Part shown: positions 40,173-64,000 of the stretch, in pieces
Layout: the number at the start of each line of letters is the position of its first letter
Numbering within the stretch: position 1 is the stretch's first letter
Assembly: GCA_965370555.1 (NCBI GenBank)
Contig: CBDUVB010000002.1
Coordinates: 39,467 to 103,466, forward strand
Reading direction: 5' to 3'
DNA length: 64,000 nt
Source: an uncultured bacterium
GTDB lineage: Bacteria; Bipolaricaulota; Bipolaricaulia; UBA7950; UBA9294
Position numbers and translations under genes: made by a program
Notes under the pieces: model-generated
The model's input: the letters and a program-made list of their open reading frames with translations, nothing else
What the model was told of the DNA's origin: nothing
The model's database searches: none

Positions 40173-40390
40173 AGTGAGTAATTTTACTCAAAGTCTTGAG
40201 TAAAATCAACTCGAACGATAGTTACCCCCATTGCTAGTCGCAACTATCTCCTGCAAATCAGGATTGCCACGCGCGCTTCCAGAGATACTCTCAAATTCCG
40301 AAAACGCCAAGAATGAAGATCTGACCACAGCTCCCCCTGGCCTTCTGTCGCACGTCGGGAGTGCTGATATTCGTTGCTGCGTGGGAAGAT

Positions 40391-40657
40391 TCAGCTCTCT
40401 TCGTCGTATGGTAGCTTGGGGAGTTGCCTGAGCGCTGCTACGAAGCGCTTGCGGTCGTAGTTTTCGTTTTGCTTGAGAACGTTGTAGAGTTCGTGGACAA
40501 CGACTGTGCCGATCAATTCCACGGCTTCCTCCCTTGAGAAGCCCTCTTTGATCAACCGTCTCAATGTCTGTCGCGTTTCTGGCGGATCGTTGTCGCGGAT
40601 CTGGTTCCCAACGACCTTCAGTATTATCTCCCGGCGCCTTTTCTGGTCTTCGTCCAT
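40391..40657 (-). CDS. Hypothetical small basic protein (about 88 aa)
   Basis: Start chosen at internal ATG (MDEDQKRRREIILK...); upstream part of the ORF-track call is Arg-rich low complexity. Confidence 0.35.
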   Translation of the reverse strand: MDEDQKRRREIILKVVGNQIRDNDPPETRQTLRRLIKEGFSREEAVELIGTVVVHELYNVLKQNENYDRKRFVAALRQLPKLPYDEES

Positions 40658-40782
40658 ACGCCCTCTTTCTTGCGCTCGCGTCTTTCGGTCTCTCCAGCGG
40701 TTCTGAGATCTTCTTCGCACTCCGACTGAACGGATGGTAGTGCAGACCAAGACCGTTTTGCAACTGATCTAATGCGTCGCTG

Positions 40783-43610: not shown

Positions 43611-44410
43611 AGCTTGCCGTAGCTGGGAAGGGCGGGGTGGGCAAGACTACTCTAGTGGCACTGCTTGCTCGTGAGGCCGTAACCCGTGGCTATCGAGTGA
43701 TTGCGGTAGATGCCGATTCCGATGCCAATCTTGCCATGACCCTGGGATTCCCCGAACCGATCATTCCGTTAGCAAAAGAGTGGGATCTGATTGCCGACCG
43801 GGCCGGCACCGGTGGGCTGATCAAATTGAACCCCACTGTGGACGACATCCCAGACCGCTACTCGGTTGAGCAGGACGGAATCCGGCTGCTTGTTCTCGGA
43901 GGCGTCCGCCAAGGTGGTGGGGGCTGCGCGTGTCCGGCCAACGCTCTCCTGCACTCCCTCCTCCGCCACCTCTTCCTTCGCCAAGGGGAGGTCGTCTTAG
44001 TGGATATGGAGGCGGGCATCGAGCACCTTGGCCGTGGTACGGTGCAGGGGGTAGATGCTCTGATCGTTGTTGTAGAGGGCGATCGCCGCTCATTGGAGAC
44101 AGCAGCGAGGATCGTCCACTTAGCCCACGAGATTGGCCTTGATCGGATTCTCGCAGTAGGAAACAAGATCCGCCAACCCGAGGAAGAAGCGCTCATCCGC
44201 GAAGGGCTCCCGGATGGCATCCCTCTTCTGAGTGTACTTTCTTACCTGGAAGAAATCCGAGCGACTGGCCTTTCAGGTAATCCTCACGAAGGGTCTTCCC
44301 CGCCGGCCGTTCAAGACCTCTTTTCGCTTCTGGAAGGGCGGCTGGGCTCCGCCCCGTATCGTCAGAGCCCAGAGTATCCTTCTAGTTGTTGTTACGAACC
44401 ACGGCCCTAA
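43607..44410 (+). CDS. cooC: CO dehydrogenase/ACS nickel-insertion ATPase CooC (AcsF-type), copy 1
   Basis: Deviant Walker A AVAGKGGVGKTT (MinD/ParA class) and CxC metal motif GGCACP; ATGA overlap with upstream gene. Confidence 0.85.
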   Translation: MKLAVAGKGGVGKTTLVALLAREAVTRGYRVIAVDADSDANLAMTLGFPEPIIPLAKEWDLIADRAGTGGLIKLNPTVDDIPDRYSVEQDGIRLLVLGGVRQGGGGCACPANALLHSLLRHLFLRQGEVVLVDMEAGIEHLGRGTVQGVDALIVVVEGDRRSLETAARIVHLAHEIGLDRILAVGNKIRQPEEEALIREGLPDGIPLLSVLSYLEEIRATGLSGNPHEGSSPPAVQDLFSLLEGRLGSAPYRQSPEYPSSCCYEPRP

Positions 44411-44519
44411 TTTGGCAGGATCTTCTCAACGTGCTATATTGCTTTGGAATATGACTGCGTGCAGGCCTATGCTTGCGAGCCACCGCAGGGAAGGATGTTC
44501 TTTTAGGAGGTAATAGATT

Positions 44520-46739: not shown

Positions 46740-46757
46740 AGGAGGAAAAATAGCGTC

Positions 46758-48104
46758 ATGGCCAAACTGACTGGCATCGAGATTTATAAACTTCTGCCGA
46801 AGACTAACTGCGGCGATTGTAACTTTCCAACGTGTATGGCCTTCGCCATGCAGGTGGCAGCGAAAAAGGCCGCGCTTGATAAATGCCCCCACGTCTCCGA
46901 AGAGGCCCAAACTGCCTTGGGCGAGGCGCAAGCGCCTCCGATGTGGACCGTCAAGATCGGTACCGGTGAGCAAGAGTTCGTCACCGGCGGGGAGACGGTC
47001 CTTTTCCGTCACGAGGAGAAATTCTACAATCCCACAGGTATCGCGATCAAGGTAGCTGCCAGCCTCTCACCGGAGGAATTGGACAAACGCATTGAGAAGA
47101 TCAATCGACTCCACTTTGTTCGCGTGGGCGAGGAGATCGGGGTGAATCTCATCGCCCTCGATCACGATGGAAGCGATGGTACCCAATACGCGAAAGCTCT
47201 CGCGCGGGTTAGGGAAAAGTCGGACTTGCCACTGGTTCTCCTTTCCTCTGATCCGCAAGTTCTAGGTCTGGCACTCGAGGCCGCAGCGGGCGAACGGCCA
47301 CTCGTTTGGGCCGCTACGCAGGAGAACTGGGAGGCGATGGCCGATCTTGCCGGAAAGTTCAAGGTCCCTCTGGGAGTCCGTGCTGAGACCCTCGAGGGAT
47401 TAGCCGAGTTGACAGGAAAGATCAAGGAAAAAGGGGTGGAGGATCTGGTGATTGAACCCCCTGGGGTAGATCTCCTCGACAATCTTACCAAGCTTACCCA
47501 GCTTCGGCGGCTGGCCCTGGAGAAGGTCTTCCGGCCGCTTGGGTATCCGACGCTGGTATTAACGGATAGTACCTCGCCATCGGAGGAGGCGAGCGAAGCA
47601 ACGGCCTACATCTGTCGCTACGCAGGTATTGTGGTGATGAACGGGACGGAGAGTTGGGAGATACTCCCGCTTCTCACCACCCGCCAGAACATCTATACCG
47701 ACCCTCAGGTCCCCAACGCCATCGAGGCCAAGCTCTACGACATCGGCGAACCGGGGCCCGATGCGCCGGTCCTCTTTACGACCAACTTCGCCCTTACTTA
47801 CTTCACCGTTGCCGGGGAGGTGGAGAACAGCAAAGTCCCGACTTACATCTGTGTAGCCGATACGGAGGGGCTGGGAGTTTTAAACGCCTACGCAGACGAC
47901 AAGCTGACCGCAGAGAAGGTGATCAAGACGGTTCAAGAGCAAGGGGTGATGGAGAAGGTCAGTCACAACAGGCTGATTATCCCTGGGTTGGTCGCTGTGC
48001 TGCGAATGGAAATTCAGGAGGACTCCGGCTGGGAGGTGATCGTCGGTCCTGAGGACGCCGCCGGGATCCCTCACTTTTTGAAGACCGAATGGAGTCCTAA
48101 CTAG
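46758..48104 (+). CDS. acsC: Corrinoid iron-sulfur protein large subunit (AcsC)
   Basis: 448 aa; N-terminal 4Fe-4S motif CGDCNFPTCMAF...C, TIM-barrel corrinoid-binding remainder. Confidence 0.9.
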   Translation: MAKLTGIEIYKLLPKTNCGDCNFPTCMAFAMQVAAKKAALDKCPHVSEEAQTALGEAQAPPMWTVKIGTGEQEFVTGGETVLFRHEEKFYNPTGIAIKVAASLSPEELDKRIEKINRLHFVRVGEEIGVNLIALDHDGSDGTQYAKALARVREKSDLPLVLLSSDPQVLGLALEAAAGERPLVWAATQENWEAMADLAGKFKVPLGVRAETLEGLAELTGKIKEKGVEDLVIEPPGVDLLDNLTKLTQLRRLALEKVFRPLGYPTLVLTDSTSPSEEASEATAYICRYAGIVVMNGTESWEILPLLTTRQNIYTDPQVPNAIEAKLYDIGEPGPDAPVLFTTNFALTYFTVAGEVENSKVPTYICVADTEGLGVLNAYADDKLTAEKVIKTVQEQGVMEKVSHNRLIIPGLVAVLRMEIQEDSGWEVIVGPEDAAGIPHFLKTEWSPN

Positions 48105-48111
48105 GCAAAAG

Positions 48112-50061
48112 ATGGATGCAGTCAAGGTCACATTCTATCCTGATGGCAAGGTCGTCGAGGCAAAGCGGGGGACGACCTTGCTTGAGATCGCTAAGGATAC
48201 GGGGATTTTCATCGCCTCGATCTGCGGCGGGGACGGAATTTGCGGTAAGTGCCGCCTGATCATTAAGGATGGCGAGGTCAAGGCAAGTCCCACGACCCAT
48301 CTTAGTCGTGAGGAGATTCAAGCCGGCTACGTCCTCGCCTGCCAAACCAGGGTGTTTGGGGACGTTGAAGTACTCATCCCTCCCGAGTCGCGGGCTGAGG
48401 GGGCCCAAATTCTCGTCGATGCGGACGCCCAGCGCTTCCGTGCCCTCTACCCTGGCACGGCCGAGCCGGCCTTCTTTCGCCCCGATCCCCTCACTCAGAA
48501 GCTCTATCTCGAACTCCCTCCCCCAAGCCTGCAGGATAACCTCGGTTGCCAAGAGCGCCTGTTTCGGGAGATCCGCCGACATGTGGATGCGCCGGTCATG
48601 CAGATGGGGCTCAAGGTGCTTAGAACCCTCCCTGACCTTCACCGTGACAGGGCCTGGAAGGTCACCGTCACCCTGGGCCGGCGGGGCGGGACAGTCGAGG
48701 TGATCCAGGTAGAACCGGGGGACCACGCTTCCCAAAACTATGGTGTGGCAGTCGATGTAGGAACCTCGACCGTCGTGGTCCACCTCGTCAATCTTGTCAC
48801 GTCGGAGACGATCGATGCGGAGGCCTGCTACAACTCCCAGATCCCTTTCGGGGAGGAGGTAACGCGGCGGATCATCCACGCCGAGCGGGAGGGATCAAAA
48901 GTCCTCCGCGAAGCTGTTGTCAGTGACATTAACAACCTGATCTCCACGCTTATATCCAGAAATCCGGTCGAATTGAACGAGGTCACCACGCTGGTTGCCG
49001 CTGGTAACACGACGATGCTCCACTTTTTGCTGGGACTGGATCCGTCCCTGATCCGCAAGAGTCCCTACATCCCGGCTGCCACGGTTCCACCACCGGTCCG
49101 CGCTGCCGAGGTGGGAATCAAGATCAACCCCCGTGGGCTCCTCTACGCCATGCCCTCAATCGGCAGTTGGGTCGGGGGCGACATCACCGCCGGTATCCTG
49201 GCGAGTGGCCTCTATCAGACCGATCGGCTGACGATGCTGATCGACATCGGAACCAATGGAGAGATCGTCCTTGGAAACCGGGAGTGGATGCTCTCCTGTG
49301 CCACTTCGGCCGGCCCGGCGTTCGAGGGAAGTGGGGTACGGTGCGGGATGAAGGCAACAAGCGGGGCAATCGAGCGGGTGGAGACCTTAGCCGATGAAGA
49401 GATCTCGTACCGGACCATTGGGGATGTCAAGCCCAAGGGACTGTGCGGCTCGGGGCTGATCGATGGGATCGCCTCGCTCTTCCAAGCAGGGATTATCGAT
49501 CGATCGGGGAATCTACTCCCCTCCCGCTCGGCCTACGTGCGCGAGCGAGAGGGCCAACTGGAGTTCGTTCTCGTTCCAGGGGAGCGGACAGAGACTGGGA
49601 GGGACATTGTGGTCACCCAGCCCGATATCGAGAACGTCTTGCGTGCCAAGGCGGCGATCTATGCCGGAGCAAAGATCCTTCTGGAATCGACACACCACGG
49701 GTTTGAGGATATTGAACAACTCTTCATCGCTGGCGGGTTTGGCAACTACCTCGATCGAGGAAAGGCAATCCTCCTCGGGCTGGTCCCCGACATTCCCTTA
49801 GAGCGGATCCGATTTGTGGGGAACACCTCACTCATCGGGGCAAAGATGGCCCTACTTTCGAGCGAGGCGTACGAGCAGTGTTTCGAGATTGCCAAGAGCA
49901 CTACGTACTATGATCTCATCACCTACCCTAACTACTATGATGAGTTCATGTCGGCGAAATTCTTGCCACACACCGATCTTGACCTTTTCCCAACAGTTGC
50001 TCGCTGGCTAAACAAAGACCGGATCGTTACTGAAGAACTGCCGTTGAAGGAGAGGGACTAG
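48112..50061 (+). CDS. Corrinoid activation/regeneration protein RACo-like (N-terminal 2Fe-2S ferredoxin + ASKHA ATPase)
   Basis: 649 aa; plant-type ferredoxin CGGDGICGKC...C at N-terminus, large ASKHA-fold C-terminal part; position between acsC and acsD as in other acs operons. Confidence 0.7.
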   Translation: MDAVKVTFYPDGKVVEAKRGTTLLEIAKDTGIFIASICGGDGICGKCRLIIKDGEVKASPTTHLSREEIQAGYVLACQTRVFGDVEVLIPPESRAEGAQILVDADAQRFRALYPGTAEPAFFRPDPLTQKLYLELPPPSLQDNLGCQERLFREIRRHVDAPVMQMGLKVLRTLPDLHRDRAWKVTVTLGRRGGTVEVIQVEPGDHASQNYGVAVDVGTSTVVVHLVNLVTSETIDAEACYNSQIPFGEEVTRRIIHAEREGSKVLREAVVSDINNLISTLISRNPVELNEVTTLVAAGNTTMLHFLLGLDPSLIRKSPYIPAATVPPPVRAAEVGIKINPRGLLYAMPSIGSWVGGDITAGILASGLYQTDRLTMLIDIGTNGEIVLGNREWMLSCATSAGPAFEGSGVRCGMKATSGAIERVETLADEEISYRTIGDVKPKGLCGSGLIDGIASLFQAGIIDRSGNLLPSRSAYVREREGQLEFVLVPGERTETGRDIVVTQPDIENVLRAKAAIYAGAKILLESTHHGFEDIEQLFIAGGFGNYLDRGKAILLGLVPDIPLERIRFVGNTSLIGAKMALLSSEAYEQCFEIAKSTTYYDLITYPNYYDEFMSAKFLPHTDLDLFPTVARWLNKDRIVTEELPLKERD

Positions 50062-50832
50062 ATGCCGTTTACGATCGCAGTGGCAGGAAAAGGGGGAACG
50101 GGTAAGACAACCGTCTCCGGGCTCCTCATCCAATACCTGCTTCAGAAAGGTCAGAGGCCGATCCTCGCGGTCGACGCCGATCCCAACGCAAACCTTGGCA
50201 ACCTGCTGGGGCTAGAGGTTGAAATGACCGTGGGTGGCCTGCAAGCCGGGACGCTCAACCAGATCCACGATCTCCCCGCCGGGGTTCCCCTGAACCGCTA
50301 TATGGAATATGAGCTGCACCAAGCCCTGGTGGAGGGAGTGGGCGTCGATCTCTTGGTGATGGGCCGTGGGGAGGGGGACGGCTGCTACTGCGTGGTCAAC
50401 CATATCTTGCGGCATTACCTTGACAAGATCCAAGAAAACTATCGCTATGTGGTCCTGGACAACGAGGCGGGGATGGAGCACCTCTCTAGACACCTCACCC
50501 AGGGGGTCGATTTGCTTCTTATCGTAAGTGATGCAAACCCAGTGGCGGTCCGCTCTGCAGCCCGAATCAATGCCCTGGCAAGCGAGTTGAATTTGAGGAT
50601 AAAAGAACGCTACTTGGTGCTGAACAATCTACGCGGCGAGGTCCCCGAGCGGGTGCAAGAGGAGATCAACCACTCGGAGTTAGAGGTATTGGGGGAGATT
50701 CCCCATGATGAGGCTCTAGCGCGGCTCAATCTGGAAGCACGGCCTCTTTGTGACTTGCTGCCAGTGGCTAGGGCATTATCGGCAATGGAGTCGATGCTCG
50801 GAAAGGCGTTGCGGAAGGAGGAGAAAGTTTGA
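50062..50832 (+). CDS. cooC: CooC-type nickel-insertion ATPase, copy 2
   Basis: AVAGKGGTGKTT deviant Walker A; GDGCYC metal motif. Confidence 0.85.
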   Translation: MPFTIAVAGKGGTGKTTVSGLLIQYLLQKGQRPILAVDADPNANLGNLLGLEVEMTVGGLQAGTLNQIHDLPAGVPLNRYMEYELHQALVEGVGVDLLVMGRGEGDGCYCVVNHILRHYLDKIQENYRYVVLDNEAGMEHLSRHLTQGVDLLLIVSDANPVAVRSAARINALASELNLRIKERYLVLNNLRGEVPERVQEEINHSELEVLGEIPHDEALARLNLEARPLCDLLPVARALSAMESMLGKALRKEEKV

Positions 50833-51806
50833 CAATGGAAATCCCTGATGTGAAGAAAAGTTGGACGAATCCCATCCATGCAGTCACGATCGGAGCCACC
50901 GCTAAAGAGGGTGGCACACGGACTTCCACCGTTACGGTGGGAGGTGAAACCACACTCCCGTTCCACCACTTCGAAGGGGAGATGCCGAACGCTCCGGTTA
51001 TCGGCATGGAAGTGTGGGACATCCCTGCAGAGGGCTGGCCTGACCCGATTAAAGAACCATTTGCGGACGTAATGGCGGATCCCGGCGCGTGGGCAAAGAA
51101 ATGTGTGGATGAGTACGGCGCTCAACTCATCTGTCTGCGTCTTAAAGGATGCGACCCAAACGGAAAAAATAAGTCCCCCGCAGAGGCGACCGAGGCTGCC
51201 AAACGCGTTCTCGAATCGGTCGGGGTTCCCCTCATCCTCTGGGGCTGCGGCAATACAGATAAGGACGCCGAAGTCTTTCCAGCGGTGGCCGAGGTGGCCT
51301 CCCAAGAGAACTGCCTCCTTGGAACGATTACCGAGGGTAACTACAAGACCTTGACCGCCGTTAGCACGGCGTACAACCACAAGCTGATTGCCGAATCACC
51401 GGTGGACATAAATTTGGCCAAGCAGGTCAACATCCTCGCGATGGATGTCGGGTTCCCCCCGGAGAATATCCTGATCTATCCCAGCACTGGCGCACTCGGT
51501 TACGGGATCGAGTACGTCTACTCGATCATGGAGCGGCTCCGAATCGCGGGCCTTAAAGGGGACAAGGTCGTTGCCATGCCGATTCTGTGTGATATCGGGA
51601 TCGAGGTGTGGGGGGTGAAAGAGGCCAAGGCTCCTGAAACTGAAGTCCCTGAATGGGGGGAGGAAAAGCGTCGCGGCCCGCTGTGGGAGGCTGCCACGGC
51701 CTATGTCTATCTCCTTGCTGGAGCCGATATTTTGATCATGCGCCACCCGGAGGCAGTGCGAATGACGAAAGAAACAATCAAACGCTTGATGGGAGGTGGG
51801 GCATGA
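50829..51806 (+). CDS. acsD: Corrinoid iron-sulfur protein small subunit (AcsD)
   Basis: 325 aa; typical AcsD TIM-barrel sequence; 4-bp overlaps with flanking genes. Confidence 0.85.
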   Translation: MTMEIPDVKKSWTNPIHAVTIGATAKEGGTRTSTVTVGGETTLPFHHFEGEMPNAPVIGMEVWDIPAEGWPDPIKEPFADVMADPGAWAKKCVDEYGAQLICLRLKGCDPNGKNKSPAEATEAAKRVLESVGVPLILWGCGNTDKDAEVFPAVAEVASQENCLLGTITEGNYKTLTAVSTAYNHKLIAESPVDINLAKQVNILAMDVGFPPENILIYPSTGALGYGIEYVYSIMERLRIAGLKGDKVVAMPILCDIGIEVWGVKEAKAPETEVPEWGEEKRRGPLWEAATAYVYLLAGADILIMRHPEAVRMTKETIKRLMGGGA

Positions 51807-52600
51807 TCCTAATTGGGGAGCGGATCAACGCCGGGTTTAAGGATATCGCCCGCGCGATCCGAGAAAAGGACCCAGCCCCGGTGAGAAGCTGGGCCGAGAA
51901 GCAGGCGCAGCGCGGGGCCGACTACCTTGACGTCAATATCGGCGCCGCGTCCAGAGATCCCGAGGACATGGCCTGGCTGGTGAAGACGGTTCAAGAGACC
52001 GTGCCCACCAAGATCTCTGTGGATTCTACAAACCTTGAGATCGTCGAAGCCGGTCTGGAGGCAGTGGACGGCCGCGGAGCAATGATCAACTCCACCACTG
52101 CCGATCCCGGAAAGCTCGAACGACTGGTCCCATTAGCGGTGAAGTACAATGTGAGCCTGCTCGGAGTGGCGATGGACAAACGGGGGAGCCCACCGGACGT
52201 CGAGCGGAGGGTGGAGAACGGTGCGATGATCTTCGCGGCTGCCGTGGAAGGCGGCCTTGAGCCGGATCAGATTATCCTCGACCCCATTCTCATGCCGCTT
52301 AAGTTCATGCAGGAGCAGGCGAAGAACGTGCTGGAGGCGATCGGTCAATACACGATCCTCTCCGATCCGCCACCGCACATCTCGGTTGGGCTCTCTAATA
52401 TAGCCTCCAAGGCCGCCGAGCGGGGACTGATCCTTCGCACCTTTCTCGTGATGGCCATAGGACAAGGGCTCGATGCGGCGATCTGTAACGTCATGGATGA
52501 TGAGCTCATCGCGGCGATTGTAACGGCAGAGCTGATCCTAAACAAAGAGATCTATAGCGATTCCTACGTGCGAGCCTTTCAGGCACGGCGTGGGCTTTAG
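51803..52600 (+). CDS. acsE: Methyltetrahydrofolate:corrinoid iron-sulfur protein methyltransferase (AcsE)
   Basis: 265 aa from ATG 51803 (MILIGERINAG...pterin-binding barrel); ORF-track start 51653 lies inside acsD and is rejected. Confidence 0.85.
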   Translation: MILIGERINAGFKDIARAIREKDPAPVRSWAEKQAQRGADYLDVNIGAASRDPEDMAWLVKTVQETVPTKISVDSTNLEIVEAGLEAVDGRGAMINSTTADPGKLERLVPLAVKYNVSLLGVAMDKRGSPPDVERRVENGAMIFAAAVEGGLEPDQIILDPILMPLKFMQEQAKNVLEAIGQYTILSDPPPHISVGLSNIASKAAERGLILRTFLVMAIGQGLDAAICNVMDDELIAAIVTAELILNKEIYSDSYVRAFQARRGL

Positions 52601-52612
52601 AAGGAGGACAAG

Positions 52613-54511
52613 GTGACGCAGGAAAGGCCAAGAAGCATCGACAAAGCCTCTCAGCAGATGCTGAAAGTCGCTAAAGAAAACCAGTATACCACCGCCTGGG
52701 ATCGCTTTGAGGCAATGCAGCCCCAGTGCAAGTTCGGAAGCGAAGGGGTCTGTTGTCGGATCTGCAGCATGGGACCCTGCCGGATCATCCCGGGCAGAAC
52801 AGATCATGGGATCTGTGGAGCTAACGTGGACACGATCGCCGCACGGAACCTCATTCGGATGATCGCAGCCGGAGCTGCAGCTCACTCTGACCACGGACGA
52901 GATGTAGCTCATGCGCTCCTGTTGGCGGCCCAGGATGAGTCAAGCGATTACGAGATTAAGGATCCGGTTAAGCTCCGTGAGGTGGCGAACGTCTACGGGA
53001 TTGGTCTCGATGGTGCCAGCGATCGAGAGATTGCCGTAGCCCTGGCCGAGCGAGCCCTAGCCAACTTCGGCCAGCAGGAGGGGGAGCTGGAGCTGGCACA
53101 CCGCGCGCCCAAAAGAAGGGTCGAGCGCTGGCAGGAATTGGGGATTATGCCTCGTGGTATCGACCGCGAGATCGTCGAGATCATGCACCGCACTCACATG
53201 GGCGTCGATACCGATTATCGGAACATCATGCAGCAGGGGTTACGCTGTGCCCTCTCCGACGGCTGGGGTGGGTCGATGATCGCCACCGAGCTCCAAGATG
53301 TCCTCTTTGGGACTCCCGCGCCCATAAGGGCCACCTGTAACCTGGGTACCCTGGAGAAGGATCAGGTGAACATCGTTGTCCATGGCCATGAACCGGTTCT
53401 CTCTGAGATGATCGTGGTGGCGGCTCAGGACCCTGAACTCCTGCAGCTCGCCGACAAGGTAGGTGCCAAGGGGATCAACATTGCCGGGATGTGTTGCACG
53501 GCTAATGAGATCCTGATGCGCCATGGGATCCCTGTCGCCGGAAACTTCCTTCAGCAGGAGCTGGCGATGATGACAGGAGCGGTCGATCTGATGATGGTCG
53601 ATGTGCAATGCATTATGCCTGCGCTATCCGACCTCTCCCAGCGGTTCCATACCAAGCTCGTCAGCACCTCACCCAAGGCAAAGTTCCCCGGGGTGGAGCA
53701 CGTTGAGTTCTCCGAGGAACACGCTTTGGATATCGCTAAACAGCTCCTCCGCATGGGGGTAGAGAATTTTGCAAATCGCGACAAGGCACCGTTCATCCCC
53801 CAGGAGACGATGGATCTAATCGGTGGTTTTACTGCAGAGTCGGTGTTCAACTTTCTCGGCGGGACCTATCGGGCTACATATCGACCCTTAAACGATGCGA
53901 TCATCGATGGCCGACTACGCGGTGCCGCGGGGATTGTTGGCTGCAACAACCCCAAGATCACCCATGACTTCGGCCACGTGGAGATGGCAAAAGAATTGAT
54001 AAAAAACGATGTCCTGGTAGTGGCTGGCGGCTGCTCGGCGATCGCCGATGCCAAGGCTGGTTTGATGAAGCCGGAGGTGGCGTTTGAGCTTGCCGGTAAG
54101 GGCTTACAGGAGATCTGCGAGGCCGTGGGTATTCCGCCGGTCTTGCACCTAGGCTCCTGCGTCGATAACTCGAGAATCTTGATGACTCTTGCCCACGTGG
54201 TCAACGAGGGAGGTCTTGGCGAGGACATCTCCGATCTTCCGGTCGCCGGGGCAGCTCCGGAGTGGATGAGTGAAAAGGCCGTTTCGATTGGGTTCTACTT
54301 CGTCGCTTCAGGGGTGTTCACCACCCTCGGGATGCCACTCCCAGTTCTCGGGTCTGAAAATCTCACCAGACTTGTGACCGAAGAATTGGAGGGAACCGTC
54401 GGCGGAAAGTTCGCCTTCGAACCCGACCCGGTAAAGGCCGCCCATCTGATGATCGACCACATCGACAAGAAACGAGCCGCACTCAAACTTAAGGATGTGA
54501 TGTATGCGTGA
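52613..54511 (+). CDS. cooS: Ni-dependent carbon monoxide dehydrogenase catalytic subunit (CooS/AcsA)
   Basis: 632 aa; B/D-cluster motif CCRICSMGPCRI and C-cluster ligands. Confidence 0.9.
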   Translation: MTQERPRSIDKASQQMLKVAKENQYTTAWDRFEAMQPQCKFGSEGVCCRICSMGPCRIIPGRTDHGICGANVDTIAARNLIRMIAAGAAAHSDHGRDVAHALLLAAQDESSDYEIKDPVKLREVANVYGIGLDGASDREIAVALAERALANFGQQEGELELAHRAPKRRVERWQELGIMPRGIDREIVEIMHRTHMGVDTDYRNIMQQGLRCALSDGWGGSMIATELQDVLFGTPAPIRATCNLGTLEKDQVNIVVHGHEPVLSEMIVVAAQDPELLQLADKVGAKGINIAGMCCTANEILMRHGIPVAGNFLQQELAMMTGAVDLMMVDVQCIMPALSDLSQRFHTKLVSTSPKAKFPGVEHVEFSEEHALDIAKQLLRMGVENFANRDKAPFIPQETMDLIGGFTAESVFNFLGGTYRATYRPLNDAIIDGRLRGAAGIVGCNNPKITHDFGHVEMAKELIKNDVLVVAGGCSAIADAKAGLMKPEVAFELAGKGLQEICEAVGIPPVLHLGSCVDNSRILMTLAHVVNEGGLGEDISDLPVAGAAPEWMSEKAVSIGFYFVASGVFTTLGMPLPVLGSENLTRLVTEELEGTVGGKFAFEPDPVKAAHLMIDHIDKKRAALKLKDVMYA

Positions 54512-54514
54512 GCC

Positions 54515-54733
54515 ATGGCAAGTATGAGTGGGATGCCGACGAGGGAGGAGCTAGAGCAGGAGATCGTGGCCTTGGAGGAGGAGTTGCGAGAGCGGAAGGC
54601 GGCCCTTCCCATTCATTCCGTCCCCCCCCCGCACTTTGAGGCGATCGAGGAGTTGGAGGAGCGGATCGGGGCAAAAAGGGAGGTGTTGAAGAATCTGAAA
54701 GATCATGGGAACGACGATATTAAGTTTGGATGA
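54515..54733 (+). CDS. Hypothetical small acidic coiled-coil protein (72 aa) containing a C9 homopolymer
   Basis: ORF tightly following cooS; contains ccccccccc at 54620-54628 encoding VPPP. Confidence 0.3.
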   Translation: MASMSGMPTREELEQEIVALEEELRERKAALPIHSVPPPHFEAIEELEERIGAKREVLKNLKDHGNDDIKFG

Positions 54734-54899
54734 TAAGGAGAGAATGGACCTGGAGACTATCATTGTGGATAGGGATCGGGATGAGGCACTCAGGTTCATC
54801 CTGAAGGTGCTCGAGCCGAAGCTCCGGGCAAAGGGGAAGGGTGCCCCAGATACGAAAAAAGGGATGGGTATCTCCGGCTAAGAGGAGGCCTGGTTTATG

Positions 54900-55088
54900 A
54901 TGTGTCTGGCAAGCGTTCAGAAGGGGAAGGGGACTGAGAAGGAGAACCTCCTAGAGGAGGTAGCGCTTATAAGGTTCGAGGGGAAGAAGTTGCTTCTGAG
55001 AACCCTTTTCGGCGAGGAAAGGGCCATCAAGGCCAAGATCAAGGAGATCGACTTCATGAACTCCACGGTCCTCATCGAGGAGGATTAG
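54900..55088 (+). CDS. cooT: CooT-family small nickel-binding protein
   Basis: About 62 aa starting MCLASV...; N-terminal Met-Cys, size and beta-rich pattern (IRFEGKKLLLRTLFGEE) consistent with the CooT family found in CODH clusters. Confidence 0.5.
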   Translation: MCLASVQKGKGTEKENLLEEVALIRFEGKKLLLRTLFGEERAIKAKIKEIDFMNSTVLIEED

Positions 55089-55820
55089 ATGAAGGTCATC
55101 GTCGCGGGAAAGGGCGGCTGTGGGAAGAGCACTGTCTCTACCCTCCTGGCTAAGGCATTGGCTAAGAGAGGAAGCAGGGTACTGGTGATCGACACCGATG
55201 AGTCCAATTTCGGGCTTCATACGCATTTAGGGCTAAAGCGGCCCGAGGATTTCATGAACTACTTCGGTGGCAAGAAAGTCCTATTTGAGAAAGTCAAGTC
55301 CATTCAGAAAAGATGGGAAATAGATGAACTCCCCGCAGAGTATCTAACAGAGAAGGGAAACATAAAACTTCTCGCAATGGGAAAGATCTACGATTTCGGC
55401 GAAGGGTGCGCCTGCCCGATCAACGCCCTCTCCTCCAGGTTCCTGGAGATCCTGGAGCTAAAAGATGACGAGTTCCTAATTGCGGATACCGATGCGGGGA
55501 TCGAGCACCTCGGCCGAGGCGTGGAGAAGGGTTGCGATCTCATCTTGGTGGTTGTGGAGCCCTCACAGGAGTCGATCGGGCTCGCCAACAGGATCGCCGC
55601 GATGGCCAAGAGCATCGACAAACCGATCTACTACATCCTAAATAAAACCGATAGTAATACGGAAGCCCTCCTCCTTGAAGCCCTGGATGGGAGCAGAGTT
55701 ATCGCGGCTGTCCCCCAGGATGAGCGGATCTTCCGCTACGGCTTAGAGGGAAGAGAGCTTGACCTTAACGTTGAAGGGATCGAAGAGCTGGTGGACTTCC
55801 TCTGCGGGCTTAAAGATTAG
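55089..55820 (+). CDS. cooC: CooC-type nickel-insertion ATPase, copy 3 (more divergent)
   Basis: IVAGKGGCGKST deviant Walker A; GEGCACP metal motif. Confidence 0.8.
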   Translation: MKVIVAGKGGCGKSTVSTLLAKALAKRGSRVLVIDTDESNFGLHTHLGLKRPEDFMNYFGGKKVLFEKVKSIQKRWEIDELPAEYLTEKGNIKLLAMGKIYDFGEGCACPINALSSRFLEILELKDDEFLIADTDAGIEHLGRGVEKGCDLILVVVEPSQESIGLANRIAAMAKSIDKPIYYILNKTDSNTEALLLEALDGSRVIAAVPQDERIFRYGLEGRELDLNVEGIEELVDFLCGLKD

Positions 55821-56425: not shown

Positions 56426-57850
56426 TCAGAAACCTCGCAACTTCTTTACCAAATTATCGGGAATCGTTGGCTTCGCATCGCCAGAGAGGATCTTTTCCAC
56501 TCGTTCTTCCAGCTTATCCAGCAGAGACGTAAAAGGTGCCTTCGGTTGAATCGTTCCTCGCTCGATGTACGAGGGAGGTAGGTACAGGGATTCCTTGAAC
56601 TTTTTCGCGGTGTGTGGGTGCTTTAAGTAAATCGTAGGGCCTTTCCCCTTAATACTCGCGCGGGCCACATCATCGATCACCGAGAGAGCAAGGTTCTCCT
56701 CGGTCAGTTGCAGCGGCCTCCACATGTAGCGAGCACGGGCGATCATCTCATCGTTTAGTACCAAGAAACGTGCGTCATACAGGGACCCGTAGGCGAGGAA
56801 GCCAACATCATGCACCACGGTCGCTCTTGACTGTAGTGTTAAGAGGATCGATTGAAATGCTTCCTCGCCAGCCTGAGCATCGACCTGCTGAGCATCGGTA
56901 CATCCTGCCCCTCCCCACGAAGGCAGATTATAGAATCGACCCATATCGGCATAGGCAGCGGTTGAGGTAGCACACTCCGGCGATCCGTAGCAGACGATGG
57001 ACGTGCGCATATCGGTCGCCCAGGAGTTCGATCCAAATATGAAGCCAGCCTTGGGGAATTTCAGTTGTAGTATGACCAGCGCAGCCAGTGACTCCGCCGC
57101 CCCTTGCACGAGAGCCCCCTCCATTGTCACCGGACCTCCACCGCCAAGGTTAGAGCTGGCTACCCCCATAGTAGGAATACCCTTCTCACCACAGAACCAC
57201 AGGCGCTCGACAACATGATCTTCGTATTTGAATGGAGACTCGGGCTGGACGTAAGTGATAAAGAATGGTCTTTCCCTGAACGCATCCGCGCTTCCCGCGA
57301 CCAGTTTCGCCATCTCGTAAGGGATCTCAAGATCGGCTAAACAGGTCGAGGTCGCGACGATCGGTTTCGTCGAGTGGATCAGCATCTCACGGAAGACCGC
57401 GGGGTATATCTTCGTTTCTTCGACATCCTCCGGCAACCCCATCGACATCACAAAATCGAATCCGGGTAGTGTTTCAAGTACCCGAACGTTGTCGATGACA
57501 TCCTGTAAACGGGCTCGCCGTACCTGTTCTGTCTCGCGATCCATAACGTAGAGTGAATCGGAACCAGCCCCAAAGTAGACTCGATTAATCCCTAAGGGGA
57601 ATTCCTTATCTTGTGTCTGGTTGTACCACGGCACGCTTGATGGGGCCCTAGCGATTGCGTCTTCTACCATTGCTTCTGGAAGGAGTATCCTTCCGTCTTT
57701 ATCCTCTTTCGCCCCGGCCGCTTTAATAAGCTTGCGTGCTTCGGCATGAGGAAGGTGAATCCCCGTCTCCGATAACACCCTGAGCACGGCCTTGTGCATC
57801 TGCTCTACCTGGTCTTTCACTAAAAAAGCAATAGGTGAGAATTCTTTCAT
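56426..57850 (-). CDS. MttB-superfamily (trimethylamine/glycine-betaine-type) corrinoid methyltransferase, non-pyrrolysine
   Basis: 474 aa; full-length uninterrupted ORF (no in-frame amber), TIM-barrel MttB-like sequence. Confidence 0.7.
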   Translation of the reverse strand: MKEFSPIAFLVKDQVEQMHKAVLRVLSETGIHLPHAEARKLIKAAGAKEDKDGRILLPEAMVEDAIARAPSSVPWYNQTQDKEFPLGINRVYFGAGSDSLYVMDRETEQVRRARLQDVIDNVRVLETLPGFDFVMSMGLPEDVEETKIYPAVFREMLIHSTKPIVATSTCLADLEIPYEMAKLVAGSADAFRERPFFITYVQPESPFKYEDHVVERLWFCGEKGIPTMGVASSNLGGGGPVTMEGALVQGAAESLAALVILQLKFPKAGFIFGSNSWATDMRTSIVCYGSPECATSTAAYADMGRFYNLPSWGGAGCTDAQQVDAQAGEEAFQSILLTLQSRATVVHDVGFLAYGSLYDARFLVLNDEMIARARYMWRPLQLTEENLALSVIDDVARASIKGKGPTIYLKHPHTAKKFKESLYLPPSYIERGTIQPKAPFTSLLDKLEERVEKILSGDAKPTIPDNLVKKLRGF

Positions 57851-58473: not shown

Positions 58474-60231
58474 TTAAAAGAGACCGACAACCTCTTCGTC
58501 ATCATCCACGTCGATATCCATAAAAGCCGGGTGGGTGGCTAGGCCAGGCATGGTGCTCATCTTCCCGATCAGCGGATAGATGAAGCCGGCACCTACGCTG
58601 GCACGCACCTCTCGCACCGGGACAGCAAACCCGGTCGGTGCCCCTTTTAGCGTCGGGTCGTGCGACAGCGAGAGGTGCGTCTTGGCCATGCATATCGGCA
58701 GGTTCCCGAAGCCCGCACGCTCGTAGTTCTCGATCTGCTTCTCGGCCAGTGGATCGTAGGTTACGCTGTCCGCACCGTAGATGTCCTTGGAAATCTTGTC
58801 GATCTTCTCCTTGATCGACCAGTCCAGTGGGTAGAGGAATTTGAAGTTCGAAGGTTTTTCGCAGGCAGAGACGACGGCCTTGGCCAGCTTCGCGGCGCCC
58901 TCGCCGCCGTTAGCCCAGTGCGTGGTAACGACTGAGTCCTTCGCGCCTTGGCCGACAGCGTATTCGCGGATCATCTCCAGTTCGGCCTCGGTGTCATCCC
59001 GAAAGGCATTCACAGCCACCACGACGGGGATACCGAACTTGAGCGCATTGCTGATGTGTACGCCGAGATTGCACAGGCCCTTCTCTAATAGTGGCAAATC
59101 CTCTTTGGTGTAGGCCGCATCCAGTGGCATTCCGGGCCTGACTGTGGGGCCGCCGCCGTGCATCTTGAGTGCCCGCACAGTTGCCACGAGCACGACCGCG
59201 TTCGGGATCAGGCCGGAGGTGCGGCATTTAATGTCGAAGAACTTCTCCATGCCGATGTCCGCGCCAAAGCCGCTTTCTGTAACCACGTAGTCGCCGAGCT
59301 TGATCGCTATCTTGTCCGCAATGATGGAACTGTTGCCGTGGGCGATGTTGGCAAACGGCCCTGCATGCACGAACGCCGGCTGCCCTTCCAGGGTCTGCAT
59401 GAGGTTGGGCATTAGCGCTTCTTTCATCAGGACCGTTACTGCACCGGCCACGCCCAGCTGCTCGACGTTGACAGGCTCGCCGTTTTTGTTGAGGCCTACC
59501 ATCATCTTGCCAAATCGTTCGCGCATGTCCTTAAACGAGGTAGTCAATGCAAGAATGGCCATGATTTCCGAGGCCACAGTGATATCAAAGCCAGTCGCCC
59601 GGGGGAATACCGGGCTTGGTGAGCCATCCTTCAGCTTGTCGTCATTGAAGCCGACCCGGATCTCGCGCAGGGTACGGTCGCACACGTCGACCACGCGCCG
59701 CCAAGAGATGGTGTCCGGATCGATGTCCAGGCGCTTCACACCGCGTTTGGCGAGCTGTTCGTCGGTCTGGCGGCTCTCGTGGTACAGACGCGTGTCGAGC
59801 GCGGCAGCGACCAGGTTGTGCGATACACTGATAGCATGGATGTCACCGGTGAGATGCAGGTTGAAATCCTCCATCGGGACGACCTGCGAGTAACCTCCGC
59901 CGGCTGCACCTCCCTTGATGTTGAAAGTGGGGCCCATGCTGGGCTGCCGAATGCAGCATATCACGTTCTTGCGCAGCTCTGAGCCCATAGCCTGGACTAG
60001 GCCGACCATGGTCGTGGACTTACCTTCTCCGAGGGGGGTCGGTGTGATGGCGGTGACGTCGATATACTTTCCGTCGGGCCGATCTTTGAGTCGCTTCAGG
60101 ATATCGAGCTTGACCTTGGCCTTCCACATCCCGAACGGTTCTAATTCCTCTTCGTTGATGCCCACTTCCCGGGCAATTTGGGTGATCGGCTTGAGTTTCG
60201 CCTCTTGCGCGATTTGAAGATCCGATTTCAT
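58474..60231 (-). CDS. fhs: Formate--tetrahydrofolate ligase
   Basis: 585 aa; [12 protein letters not shown]-loop and complete FTHFS signature. Confidence 0.95.
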
Positions 60232-60379
60232 TCACTAACCTCCTGGTAATTTGGGTGATTAACCTCTTTAGATACTTATTCCTGCTTCCTGCCTATTTAC
60301 GCTGTAGGCTTGAGTTTCACCTCTTGCATAATCTTTAAATTCGACGGCATCTTAGGCTTTTTCATAACCGTTTCCTCCT

Positions 60380-61324
60380 TCAGGTTAAATTTCTCTCTAG
60401 GTCAAGGCCTGCCCCCTCCACGATCTTCGGCACGGCCTCCTCCCACTCGATTGCCATAATGTGAACTCCGTTGATCCCGGGGATCTCACGCACCTGCTGA
60501 ATAATCTCCGTGCAAATTTTGATCCCTTCGTCTGCACGTTTCTCCTTCGGGGTTTTCTTCATCCGGTCCACGATCTTGTCAGGCACGTCCATACCTGGTA
60601 CATTGGCGGCCATATAGCGCGCTGTCCCTAACGATTTGATCGGTCCCACTCCCGCAAGGATGTAAACCTTTTCGTCCAGGCCCATACCAGAGACCTTGCT
60701 CATGTACTCGCGGAATTTAGGTACGTTGTAGACCATTTGAGTCTGGATGAAATCGGCTCCCGCCGCTACCTTCTCAGCCAGCCGGTAAGGGCGGTATTCG
60801 AAGGGCGCAGCGAAGGGATTGGCCGCAGCACCTATAAAAAGACGCGGTTCGACCTTCATCTCTTCACCACACTGAAACTTCTTCTCATCCCGCATGTCCT
60901 TCACTATCTTGACGAACTGAACGGAGTCAATGTCGTAGACCCCTTTGGCCTCGGGATGGTTGCCGAAGGACATGTGATCGCCGCTGAGGCAGAGGACATT
61001 ATTCATCCCGAGCGCCGCAGCGCCCAACACATCCATCTGGAGGGCGATCCGGTTCCGATCGCGGCAGGTCATCTGAATCACCGGCTCCAGCCCCTCCCCC
61101 TTCTGGATGAGGCAGGCTGCCCAACTGGCCATGCGGACCACCGCCGTCTGGCCATCGGTGACATTGAAGGCATCGGCATATCCCTTTATCAACCTTGCCT
61201 TTCTCTTGACCACTTCGGGATCGGCGCTCTTCGGCGGACCGAGTTCTGCCGTAACTGCAAAGTTCCCTGACTCCAGGACTCTCTCCAGATTGCTCTCTGT
61301 TTTCATAGGTTTTGTCCCTCCCAT
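60380..61324 (-). CDS. metF: Methylenetetrahydrofolate reductase (acetogen-type MetF), copy 1
   Basis: 314 aa (possible start at MKTESN, 61306); FAD-binding TIM barrel motifs TCRDRNRIALQ. Confidence 0.85.
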   Translation of the reverse strand: MGGTKPMKTESNLERVLESGNFAVTAELGPPKSADPEVVKRKARLIKGYADAFNVTDGQTAVVRMASWAACLIQKGEGLEPVIQMTCRDRNRIALQMDVLGAAALGMNNVLCLSGDHMSFGNHPEAKGVYDIDSVQFVKIVKDMRDEKKFQCGEEMKVEPRLFIGAAANPFAAPFEYRPYRLAEKVAAGADFIQTQMVYNVPKFREYMSKVSGMGLDEKVYILAGVGPIKSLGTARYMAANVPGMDVPDKIVDRMKKTPKEKRADEGIKICTEIIQQVREIPGINGVHIMAIEWEEAVPKIVEGAGLDLERNLT

Positions 61325-62013
61325 TATTCGAGGCTGAGTGGAGCAACCTCGATCTTGCGAGGTCTCTGCATCTTGCTCCAGTCCTTTGGCTCTCTCATTT
61401 CTCTTAGTCTGTCGAACTCACCAAACGCCTTCAGCCTCTCGTAGATCATCACCCAGGCGCAATCGCGCTCGGGGTCTACCTCGCACTTGCCATCTTTGGT
61501 AACTCCTCCACACGGGCCATTAAGAAACCCTTTGGGACACTGGGTAAATGGGCAGATACCAGCGAGCCTGCCCAGCTCGCATTCGCCGCACTGCTGGCAC
61601 TTCTCCTTAAAGAGAGAAGGCCCCCCTCCCATGTGACCTATGGGATTGGTTGCCGGGTAGATGGGCTTCTGGAGGCCGAATTCCTCCTCGATGATGAGCT
61701 CTCGCACGACTTGTAGTCCATCACCGCAGCTTAGCATCAGGATGGCATCGCATTCCTTGATCTCCTGGCGATACTTGCTCAGGCGCTCTTTGCTCCAGGG
61801 AGCGTAGCAGGTGAACTCCCCGAACGGTGGCGCAACAGTAGCAAGAATGTTCTTCCCGTGCTTCGAAAGGGTGTCTGCCATCTCTTTCACCTCCGGCTCG
61901 CCGCCGGTGTGGAAGACCGTGGCGCAACCGCCGCACCCAACCAAGACTACCTTCTCTTTGCCCTGGAGGTATCCGAGGATCTCCTCGAGGGGCTTCTGAG
62001 TCTGCCCGATCAT
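61324..62013 (-). CDS. metV: MetV (MTHFR-associated zinc-ribbon/Fe-S subunit), copy 1
   Basis: 229 aa; Cys clusters VGCGGCAT and CQQCGEC...CPF.QCPKGFLNGPCGG. Confidence 0.8.
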   Translation of the reverse strand: MIGQTQKPLEEILGYLQGKEKVVLVGCGGCATVFHTGGEPEVKEMADTLSKHGKNILATVAPPFGEFTCYAPWSKERLSKYRQEIKECDAILMLSCGDGLQVVRELIIEEEFGLQKPIYPATNPIGHMGGGPSLFKEKCQQCGECELGRLAGICPFTQCPKGFLNGPCGGVTKDGKCEVDPERDCAWVMIYERLKAFGEFDRLREMREPKDWSKMQRPRKIEVAPLSLE

Positions 62014-62112
62014 GTTCTTCCTCCTTCAATTACGGTCTTGTCTAACTCTAATTCATTTGTAAACCAGCATCGCAATTTCCAGGCATTCCTGTATTGTTCT
62101 TACTTTCAGTTG

Positions 62113-62985
62113 TCAGATCGATATGCCTACTTCCGTGAGGATAGCCGGCACATATCGTTCCCAGCCCATCGTCATCAGATGTATCCCTTGACACATCTCC
62201 CGCGTCTCTCGGATGATGCGGGCGGTGATCTTGATGCTGGTGGCGACCTTATCGCTGGTCTCCTCCATCTCGGTGATAATTGAGTCGGGGACCTTTACTC
62301 CGGCCACGTTCTTGTTCATGTAGCGAGCCATCCCAGCCGACTTTAGAAGCACTAGTCCAAGCATCACCGGAACACCCAGCTCCTTTGCCTCTTCCATGAA
62401 CCCCCTGAACAGTTCCGGGTCATAGACAGCCTGCGTCTGGAAGAACTGCGCCCCGGCGGTTACCTTTCGCTGCATCTTTAGCAGCTGAAGATCCATTGGC
62501 TCATATCCCGGCGTGACCACTGCCCCCAAGAGGAAAGAAGGTTTCCCCTGCAGCTTGTTTCCAACATGGTCATATCCTTCCTTAAGTCTGTTTGCGGTCA
62601 TAAGCAGGGAGACTGAGTCGAGGTCAAACACCGGTTTTGCCTGTGGGTGATCCCCCAGTGTAACGTAGTCACCGGTGAGGCAAAGGACGTTCTCAATGCC
62701 CAGCGCATAGGCGCTTAAGAGATCGGATTGTAGCGCTATGCGATTGCGGTCTCGCGTGGTGAGCTGGAATATCGGTTCGAACCCTGATTCTTTGAGGAGA
62801 CGGCAGGAAGCGAGCGATCCCAGCCGCATCACCGAGCTCTGTTGGTCGGTTACGTTGACGGCGTGTACTTTTCCGCGTAGGTACTCGGCGTTCTTCAGCA
62901 TCTCGGAGACGTCCACCCCCTTGGGGGGCGCAACCTCTGCGGTGACGACAAACTTACCCTCCTTGAATAACTCACTGAGCTTCAT
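62113..62985 (-). CDS. metF: Methylenetetrahydrofolate reductase (MetF), copy 2
   Basis: 290 aa; about 45% identical to copy 1 (TTRDRNRIALQSDLL). Confidence 0.85.
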   Translation of the reverse strand: MKLSELFKEGKFVVTAEVAPPKGVDVSEMLKNAEYLRGKVHAVNVTDQQSSVMRLGSLASCRLLKESGFEPIFQLTTRDRNRIALQSDLLSAYALGIENVLCLTGDYVTLGDHPQAKPVFDLDSVSLLMTANRLKEGYDHVGNKLQGKPSFLLGAVVTPGYEPMDLQLLKMQRKVTAGAQFFQTQAVYDPELFRGFMEEAKELGVPVMLGLVLLKSAGMARYMNKNVAGVKVPDSIITEMEETSDKVATSIKITARIIRETREMCQGIHLMTMGWERYVPAILTEVGISI

Positions 62986-63697
62986 ATCCTGGCAACCTCG
63001 CTTTCCGGGGAGAATTGAGCACCTGCTGAAGACCGGAATATAGCCCTCTTATCCAAGGAGAGGCTTCGCGGCTTGCCCCACTTGGAGTAGTCTTTGGGTT
63101 CATAGTACCTATGCATCAGGTCCAATCTGCCGATGGCCTTCAATCTTTCGTAAATCAATTGCCAGCCGCAATCACGTTCCCTATCCACCTCACACTTACC
63201 ATCGCTAGCGCCGCCGCAAGGTCCATTCAGAAGCCCCTTAGGGCATAAGGTTACCGGACAAAGACCCCCGGTGTACTCAACGATACACTCCCCACAGAGG
63301 GAACAATACTCTGTGATGAAATCCTCGCTCAGTGTCTCACCACCGAAGATCGTATCGCAGCCGGGATGGACTATTTTCCTGTCATCGGTAGCGTCCAAAA
63401 CCGTATGCACCCCTTGCCCACAAGCAAGGACCAACAGAGCGTCGGCCTCTAAAACGGCCTCCCCATGCTCTTCGGTAAGCGACGTCTTCACATCCGAAAG
63501 TTTGCAAGTGCCAGGAGGAACCACCCACCCTGCAATCACTTTGCCTTTGTTTTCCAAACGCGACTTCATCTCCTTAGCCTCAGTCTCTCCGCCTGACTTA
63601 CATTTTGTAGCACAGTTTCCACAGCCGACGACAAAAACCTTGTTCTCTCCGTCTGAATAACCGAGGATCTCCTCTAGAGATTTCTATATTGCGGCAT
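62982..63697 (-). CDS. metV: MetV copy 2, interrupted near 5-prime end by a -1 frameshift in an A-run (annotated ORF begins only at Met 63569)
   Basis: Strong RBS GGAGA + ATG at 63697 gives MPQYRNL then TAG; the -1 frame continues KSLEEILGYSDGENKVFVVGCGNCATKCKSGGETEAKEMKSRL..., homologous to the MetV1 N-terminus; restoring one A in AAA (63681-63683) would give an intact 238-aa MetV. Confidence 0.65.
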
Positions 63698-63734
63698 GTA
63701 TAAAATCTCCTCTCTTATAAGATTGGGTTAAGTG

Positions 63735-64000
63735 TTATTCTTTCTCCTCTTCTACGGCCCACATTCGCGTCGATCTTATCTTGTTAGGTGGTCGCATCCT
63801 GGCATAGTCTTTGAAATGGGTTTTGCTCTGACTAAGCAGATCAAGGCGGTCTTGCCTCTTTAGGCGCTCGTAGACAATCTGCCAGCCGCAGGGTTGCTCC
63901 GGCTCCACCTCGCACATGCCATCGTGGGAGCCCCCGCAGGGGCCGTTCAGGAGCCCCTTAGCGCAGGCGGTGAGGGGGCAGACCCCCCCAGTGTACTCCA
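63735..64000 (-). CDS. metV: MetV-like protein, copy 3 (5-prime end beyond window)
   Basis: Reading frame open to window edge; translates ...TGGVCPLTACAKGLLNGPCGGSHDGMCEVEPEQPCGWQIVYERLK, the conserved MetV C-terminal Cys motif. Confidence 0.6.
   Translation of the reverse strand, partial: EYTGGVCPLTACAKGLLNGPCGGSHDGMCEVEPEQPCGWQIVYERLKRQDRLDLLSQSKTHFKDYARMRPPNKIRSTRMWAVEEEKE

Follow-up and report, generated by a model that had tools for sequence, protein, structure and literature searches.

A metV paralog in a Bipolaricaulota Wood-Ljungdahl operon is probably a natural loss-of-function allele closed by two substitutions

We analysed a stretch of 64,000 nucleotides (nt; the window, whose coordinates are used throughout) from contig CBDUVB010000002.1 of an uncultured member of the Bipolaricaulota. 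The end of the window carries a minus-strand locus for methylenetetrahydrofolate reductase (MTHFR), in which MetF is the catalytic subunit and MetV a strongly stimulating subunit that contains Fe-S and Zn (PMC8760232). One of its genes, metV2 (62982..63701, minus strand; 720 nt), is colinear with intact alleles of 239 amino acids (aa) and appears to be a disabled gene, a polymorphic pseudogene. The reading we favour, with a probability of roughly 0.8, is that metV2 is a natural loss-of-function allele of a redundant paralog, and that it arose through two transitions, a start loss and a nonsense change, and not through the frameshift assumed in an original prediction made from the same DNA.

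We compared metV2 with related contigs and genome records, which are given L-numbers. The 1913-nt alignment of the window with L003, in which metV2 is an intact 239-aa gene, is gapless and has 20 mismatches, all but one of them within metV2. The intact gene begins ATG CAT GCC ACA ATA CAG AAG CCT CTA GAG, and the window copy begins ATA CAT GCC GCA ATA TAG AAA TCT CTA GAG. At the lost start codon (63699..63701, minus strand) the window has ATA, owing to G>A at 63699, where seven of seven intact-allele contigs have ATG; at codon 6 (63684..63686, minus strand) it has a premature TAG where CAG (Gln6) is invariant in 121 homologs. The N-terminus of the MetV2 family reads MHATIQKPLEEIL, and these homologs (234-267 aa) all have Q6, C27 and C30, while M1-I5 show at least 90% conservation. 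The original prediction had blamed a -1 frameshift caused by a missing A at 63681-63683. However, this three-base run is equally long in intact alleles (CAG AAA YCT or CAG AAG CCT), and the 5' ends of intact metV2 in seven closely related contigs have the same length as that of the window and differ by substitutions only. Because the alignment is gapless and the alleles are of equal length, the lesion is not an indel, and the proposed frameshift is refuted; an extra A at 63681-63683 does create an open reading frame (ORF), though not the ancestral one. The aligned sequences show that two substitutions close the metV2 frame: ATG has become ATA at the start, and CAG has become TAG at codon 6.

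The conserved metV2 frame reads ...I*KSLEEILGYSDGENKVFVVGCGNCAT... and encodes KSLEEILGY..VVGCGNCAT, the cluster that had been correctly assigned to the neighbouring frame, and it is open to the stop at 62982. With ATA as its start and TAG at codon 6, the window contains no full-length translatable MetV2 ORF, and the first ATG, GTG or TTG in frame lies downstream of both cysteine codons (Cys27, 63623-63621; Cys30, 63614-63612; minus strand). The Shine-Dalgarno sequence AAGAGAGGAG of metV2 (63707..63716, minus strand) does not differ between broken and intact alleles. Its distance is 5 nt to the ancestral start and 9 nt to an out-of-frame ATG at 63697 (cATGcc), which is 4 nt downstream of the true start and is present also in the close intact alleles L003 and L091-L094. 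As had been described, this ATG is followed after 7 codons by TAG (63676-63674), giving a mini-ORF that encodes MPQYRNL (63674..63697, minus strand). It had been taken, together with the ribosome-binding site, for the metV2 start, but it is incidental, the true start being the mutated codon upstream. We propose that the unchanged Shine-Dalgarno sequence would still recruit ribosomes, which would most likely initiate at the out-of-frame ATG and terminate at 63674 with a heptapeptide as the product; no full-length MetV2 could then be made.

Two overlapping frames after a strong Shine-Dalgarno sequence might also point to a programmed -1 ribosomal frameshift from ATG 63697 into the conserved frame. 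We rejected this candidate, which we hold to be highly improbable. There is no X XXY YYZ slippery heptamer in ATGCCGCAATATAGAAATCTCTAG (63697-63674), and the two-frame layout is not conserved, the seven intact-allele contigs and the 120 best homologs being single ORFs. The close intact alleles share the out-of-frame ATG yet need no shift, as their own in-frame ATG is intact. By contrast, the genuine programmed frameshift in the window, that of prfB, has the canonical CTT TGA C.

Alleles were sampled by exact-protein look-ups. The look-up of MetF2 gave three contigs of other metagenomes, of which L001 and L002 have the same 195-aa metV2 call as the window and L003 has the intact 239-aa gene. 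In the 90%-identity cluster of MetV2, gene callers report five different 195-aa forms, and the 239-aa length also occurs in several versions; the underlying DNA was retrieved for most of these. A DNA-pattern scan of metagenome contigs with a 35-mer of metV2 returned no match; a scan of genome contigs, in which the best match had 74% identity and the window's own species was not returned, was used as context for other lineages only. Contig L088 (2x coverage, many scattered differences) was set aside as noise. An identical 5' end, ATA CAT GCC GCA ATA TAG AAA TCT, is present in the window and in L001 (JGI 3300009494), L002 (ERZ25073599), L085 (Logan SRR21487742), L086 (ERZ23498918) and L087 (ERZ25748669), five contigs that come from five different samples and from different assemblers (JGI, ENA and Logan sources). 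The intact form, ATG CAY GCY ACM ATW CAG, is found in seven contigs (L003 and L089-L094).

Because the same allele occurs in the window and in five other assemblies, the combination of ATA and TAG is not an assembly error. It is a genuine allele, segregating with intact ones in related Bipolaricaulota populations. The original prediction had offered a sequencing or assembly indel in a homopolymer as one of three options, for which the window provides a short A run only; with no length difference from intact alleles, lesions that are substitutions, and recurrence across assemblies of JGI, ENA and Logan origin, we rejected this option as extremely unlikely. A recent inactivating mutation came closest among the three, with two substitutions in place of the frameshift.

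We polarised substitutions among the close metV2 alleles with L089 (about 11-13% divergent in metV2) as the outgroup. Broken alleles have 13 nonsynonymous and 5 synonymous private changes (a ratio of nonsynonymous to synonymous rates, dN/dS, of about 0.75), as against 4 and 10 in intact alleles (about 0.12, with the L003-L089 background likewise at 0.12). Over the whole of metV2 this comparison gives a Fisher p value of 0.03, with small counts and recombination present. Four differences are fixed between the broken and the close intact alleles (M1I, T4A, Q6* and L16S), all of them nonsynonymous and within codons 1-16. Near-invariant MetV2 residues have been replaced on the broken lineage, namely T4, V56 and S88, as well as F222 in L086. 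These signs of decay suggest that metV2 is drifting under relaxed constraint on the broken lineage while the allele segregates beside intact ones.

Codons 1-44 of the broken alleles carry five private nonsynonymous and zero synonymous changes, which would be unexpected if this segment were translated and needed. This bears on the idea that near-full-length MetV2 is still made by recoding, either by initiation at ATA with read-through of TAG or by re-initiation at ATC 63668-63666 after the mini-ORF. The mini-ORF stop (63676-63674) is indeed 5 nt before the in-frame ATC, itself preceded by GAGGAG, and the MttB-family gene nearby belongs to a family that is sometimes tied to pyrrolysine (TAG) decoding. 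However, ATA and ATC are very poor initiators, and the MttB homolog in the window has no in-frame TAG. In addition, TAG is an ordinary stop that ends 9 of the 39 long ORFs in the window, for which reason TAG reassignment was rejected. We judge recoding to be very unlikely.

Exchange between strains complicates the history of the locus. When the window is compared with L091, L094 and L089, metF2 differs by 11-17%, as against 4-13% for metV2 and 3-11% for metV3, and among the window, L001, L002, L003 and L087 the same gene (62113-62985) has at most 2 nucleotide differences. The metVF locus is a recombination mosaic among strains. The broken- and intact-allele contigs have few private changes in metF2 and metV3, too few to judge decay of metF2. 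In fhs of L001, 23 differences are crowded together at 59377-59730.

The minus-strand order at the end of the window is metV3 (a 3' fragment), the disrupted metV2, metF2, metV1 and metF1, followed by fhs, folE and a gene for an MttB-family methyltransferase; ORFs and Pfam matches bear out the strand and the order given for the metVF genes in the original prediction. PF02219 is found in both MetF proteins and PF12225 in all three MetV proteins. The part of metV3 in the window (63735..64000, minus strand) comprises the last 87 codons and the stop TAA at 63737-63735 (PF12225, E = 4e-23). The full gene, as seen in L001 and L002, encodes 225 aa and stands directly after the gene for a [NiFe] hydrogenase large subunit. 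The metV2 stop overlaps the start of metF2 (ATGA, 62985-62982), and metF2 (62113..62985, minus strand; 290 aa; PF02219, E = 4e-38), which encodes an MTHFR catalytic subunit, is translationally coupled to metV2. Next comes metV1 (61324..62013, minus strand; 229 aa), which is intact and has CGGC at the CxxC position, and its stop is overlapped by the start of metF1 (60380..61324, minus strand; 314 aa). The transcriptional unit is metV then metF, with two metF and three metV in total, and a MetV2-type gene is followed by MetF in most of 80 genome loci. No RNA family was found in the window at the Rfam gathering threshold, and a promoter and terminator scan of 60200-64000 gave background level.

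MetV1, MetV2 and MetV3 are pairwise 40-47% identical, and MetF1 and MetF2 are 40% identical. The locus had been described as a tandemly triplicated metF-metV module. Multiple copies are present, but they are two metF and three metV, metV3 follows a hydrogenase gene and not metF, and at this divergence the genes appear to be old paralogs, not the outcome of a recent tandem triplication. The complete genome of Candidatus (Ca.) Bipolaricaulota sp. J31 has the order HydS-HydL-MetV-MetF-Fhs, with its MetV closest to MetV3 (58%) and its MetF closest to MetF2 (56%). RF2, a housekeeping protein, and the hydrogenase large subunit have their nearest named relatives exclusively in Candidatus Bipolaricaulota. 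Because this relative has a MetV3-type gene directly before a MetF2-type gene, with no MetV2 between them, a metV2 null would be expected to be viable. MetV2 looks like a redundant insert within a MetV3/MetF2-type pair, and its loss is probably tolerated, as the operon still encodes MetV3 and MetV1-MetF1.

The sole ATG-, GTG- or TTG-initiated ORF remaining in the conserved frame of metV2 runs from Met45 and encodes 195 aa (62982..63569, minus strand). Expression of an N-truncated MetV from this Met (63569) was the third option of the original prediction. The ORF could in principle yield a truncated functional MetV2 that keeps the C-terminal Cys-rich PF12225 domain and the coupling to metF2. 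In all broken alleles this ORF is open to the normal stop that overlaps the metF2 start, and its PF12225 domain is intact (E = 3.9e-33, profile positions 2-95 of 95). An AlphaFold model of the MetV2 cluster representative has a mean predicted local distance difference test score (pLDDT) of 70, with a confident N-terminal alpha/beta domain (10-residue block means of 82-98 over residues 11-110) in which beta1 is formed by residues 21-25, the CxxC loop by 27-30 and a helix by 28-34. The alpha/beta domain that holds beta1 and this loop is scored at pLDDT 87-98. A product from Met45 lacks beta1, alpha1 and the invariant Cys27-x-x-Cys30, so that this domain is unlikely to fold. The invariance of C27 and C30 suggests that they may be metal ligands. 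We found no solved MetV in the PDB by sequence, profile or fold, and Foldseek gave generic Rossmann-like alpha/beta matches only, at E values of 0.005 or worse. None of the 120 best MetV2 homologs is shorter than 234 aa, the replaced near-invariant residues V56 and S88 (and F222 in L086) lie within the 195-aa ORF, and the context of Met45 is ordinary coding sequence, identical in intact alleles. We therefore regard a functional truncated MetV2 as unlikely. At most, a 195-aa product without the first beta-strand and the cysteine pair would be made, and it would probably not be a working MetV.

Several points weigh against a null allele, the first three of them in favour of the truncated product. 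GAGG is located 8 nt upstream of Met45, and some short product is possible. The relaxed-constraint signal is not significant in the 195-aa part alone, where codons 45-239 have 8:5 nonsynonymous to synonymous changes in broken alleles versus 3:8 in intact alleles (p = 0.12). No broken allele has further stops or indels 3' of Met45. Strain recombination, exemplified by the mosaic L085, makes the lineage assignment of substitutions approximate, and the pairing of MetV3 with MetF2 is read from gene order only. We nevertheless favour natural loss of function by two substitutions as the best account of metV2.

In L001, the genes beyond window position 64000 are, in order, those for a corrinoid protein, RACo, the small and large subunits of a [NiFe] hydrogenase (L001:2764-5096) and metV3. 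A small and large subunit pair is also present at L095:8141-11991. The best PDB and NCBIfam matches of the hydrogenase are periplasmic NiFeSe/NiFe enzymes (E = 1e-111 and 1e-70), below equivalog cut-offs, and the Ni-binding motifs RxCGxC and DPCxxC are present as RICGVC and DPCLAC. The large subunits of the window lineage and of J31 have no C-terminal extension and end with DPCLACA[VI]Q (DPCLACAVQ in the window lineage). No RRxF motif of a twin-arginine translocation (Tat) signal was found in 12 of 12 MetV-linked small subunits examined, and in most of them, including those of J31 and the window lineage, the nearest in-frame stop upstream is just about 15-40 residues away from the first CxGC. 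As this leaves no room for a Tat signal peptide, the MetV-linked group-1a-like hydrogenase should be cytoplasmic. Genes for HydS, HydL or both occur in 11 of the 80 genome loci with MetV2-type genes, and 8 of these 11 also have a MetV3-type gene. The records label the 11 loci as Omnitrophota, Dehalococcoidia, Planctomycetota, Nitrospiraceae and an archaeon.

Four types of MTHFR have been defined biochemically, and the MetVF-type enzymes are types II-IV of acetogens (PMC8760232). The original prediction had seen in the MetFV paralogs a hint of alternative electron-donor coupling, and had looked to hdr/mvhD or rnf-type genes beyond the window as partners. Neither hdrABC/mvhD (type IV) nor rnfC2 (type III) was found among the window ORFs of at least 150 aa that were scanned, nor in the 5.5 kb beyond (L001). 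The coupling idea gains indirect support from the partner that is found there, the [NiFe] hydrogenase. A group 1a hydrogenase adjoining metVF in Ca. Bipolaricaulia has been proposed, on genomic grounds, to supply electrons for reduction of methylenetetrahydrofolate (methylene-THF) (PMC11287216). This arrangement falls outside the four defined MTHFR types (PMC8760232). The hydrogenase-MetV-MetF module is thus already noted in the literature, only in passing, and has never been studied biochemically.

The MttB-family methyltransferase gene (56426-57850, minus strand) has no in-frame TAG and lies downstream of the metVF genes. Upstream of the hydrogenase are genes for a glycine-betaine/methylamine-type corrinoid protein and a second RACo activase (L001:114-2567). 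This bracketing of the hydrogenase-metVF genes suggests that methylated amines may here supply methyl groups to the folate pathway, possibly with the MTHFR working in the oxidative direction. A tentative, and in our view rather doubtful, extension is that the Tat-less hydrogenase, MetV3 and a MetF form an H2-linked methylene-THF reductase, a fifth coupling type. Such an enzyme might reverse during demethylation via MttB, the corrinoid protein and RACo, and the metV2 knock-outs would then be in-situ evidence that a second MetV is an optional adaptor, gained and lost by populations as they re-route MetF2 between electron partners.

Elsewhere in the window is a full acs/cooS Wood-Ljungdahl cluster (43.5-54.5 kb), a complete acs cluster of bacterial type with the genes cooC, acsB, acsC, RACo, cooC, acsD, acsE, cooS and cooC at 43574-55820. 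A gene for a GNAT-DUF3786 fusion (42366-43610) precedes this cluster, and in J31 a DUF3786 gene adjoins cooC and acsB. In prfB (34021-32926, minus strand), a 21-codon leader frame from ATG 34021 leads into the classical CTT TGA C site for programmed +1 frameshifting (33964-33958), a known prfB feature. Two paralogous AAA_14/DUF4143 ATPase genes are found at 38955-42093, and an AbiEi-like antitoxin gene (4913-5704) stands near an ATPase gene of the AAA_21/AAA_15 type (2898-4328). Lying among housekeeping genes, they resemble genes of defence systems or mobile elements.

In summary, the broken metV2 is ordinary biology, a dying gene copy, and mainly a point of annotation. It should be annotated as a pseudogene (start loss plus nonsense), with no repair by addition of a base and no programmed-frameshift label. 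It offers a small case of a Wood-Ljungdahl operon losing a redundant electron-transfer subunit, with intact alleles surviving in habitats of the same type, and the loss hints that MetF2 is able to function with a different MetV. A lead of more interest is the hydrogenase-MetV-MetF module, which lies mostly outside the window and recurs in records labelled as at least five lineages.

These features can be set against three known systems. As in other polymorphic (segregating) pseudogenes of redundant bacterial paralogs, metV2 has point lesions, intact alleles in close relatives, an apparently higher dN/dS on the disabled lineage and intact paralogs in the same operon; it differs in that it sits in a core energy-metabolism operon and that its partner metF2 stays conserved. 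With the MetV of acetogen MetVF MTHFRs (PMC8760232) it shares a C-terminal PF12225 domain, richness in cysteine, a length of about 230-240 aa when intact, and a position directly upstream of and overlapping metF in a Wood-Ljungdahl cluster. Unlike in those systems, metV2 in the window lacks a functional start codon and is interrupted by a stop at codon 6, and three MetV occur with two MetF in one operon. Finally, the neighbourhood of a group 1a [NiFe]/[NiFeSe] (HysAB-like) hydrogenase beside metVF (PMC11287216) is the same in the window lineage and J31. In contrast to periplasmic group 1a enzymes, most MetV-linked small subunits leave no space for a Tat signal peptide and the large subunit of the window lineage has no C-terminal extension, and relative to the HydSL-MetV-MetF neighbourhood the window lineage has an extra metV2 and metV1-metF1 in the module.

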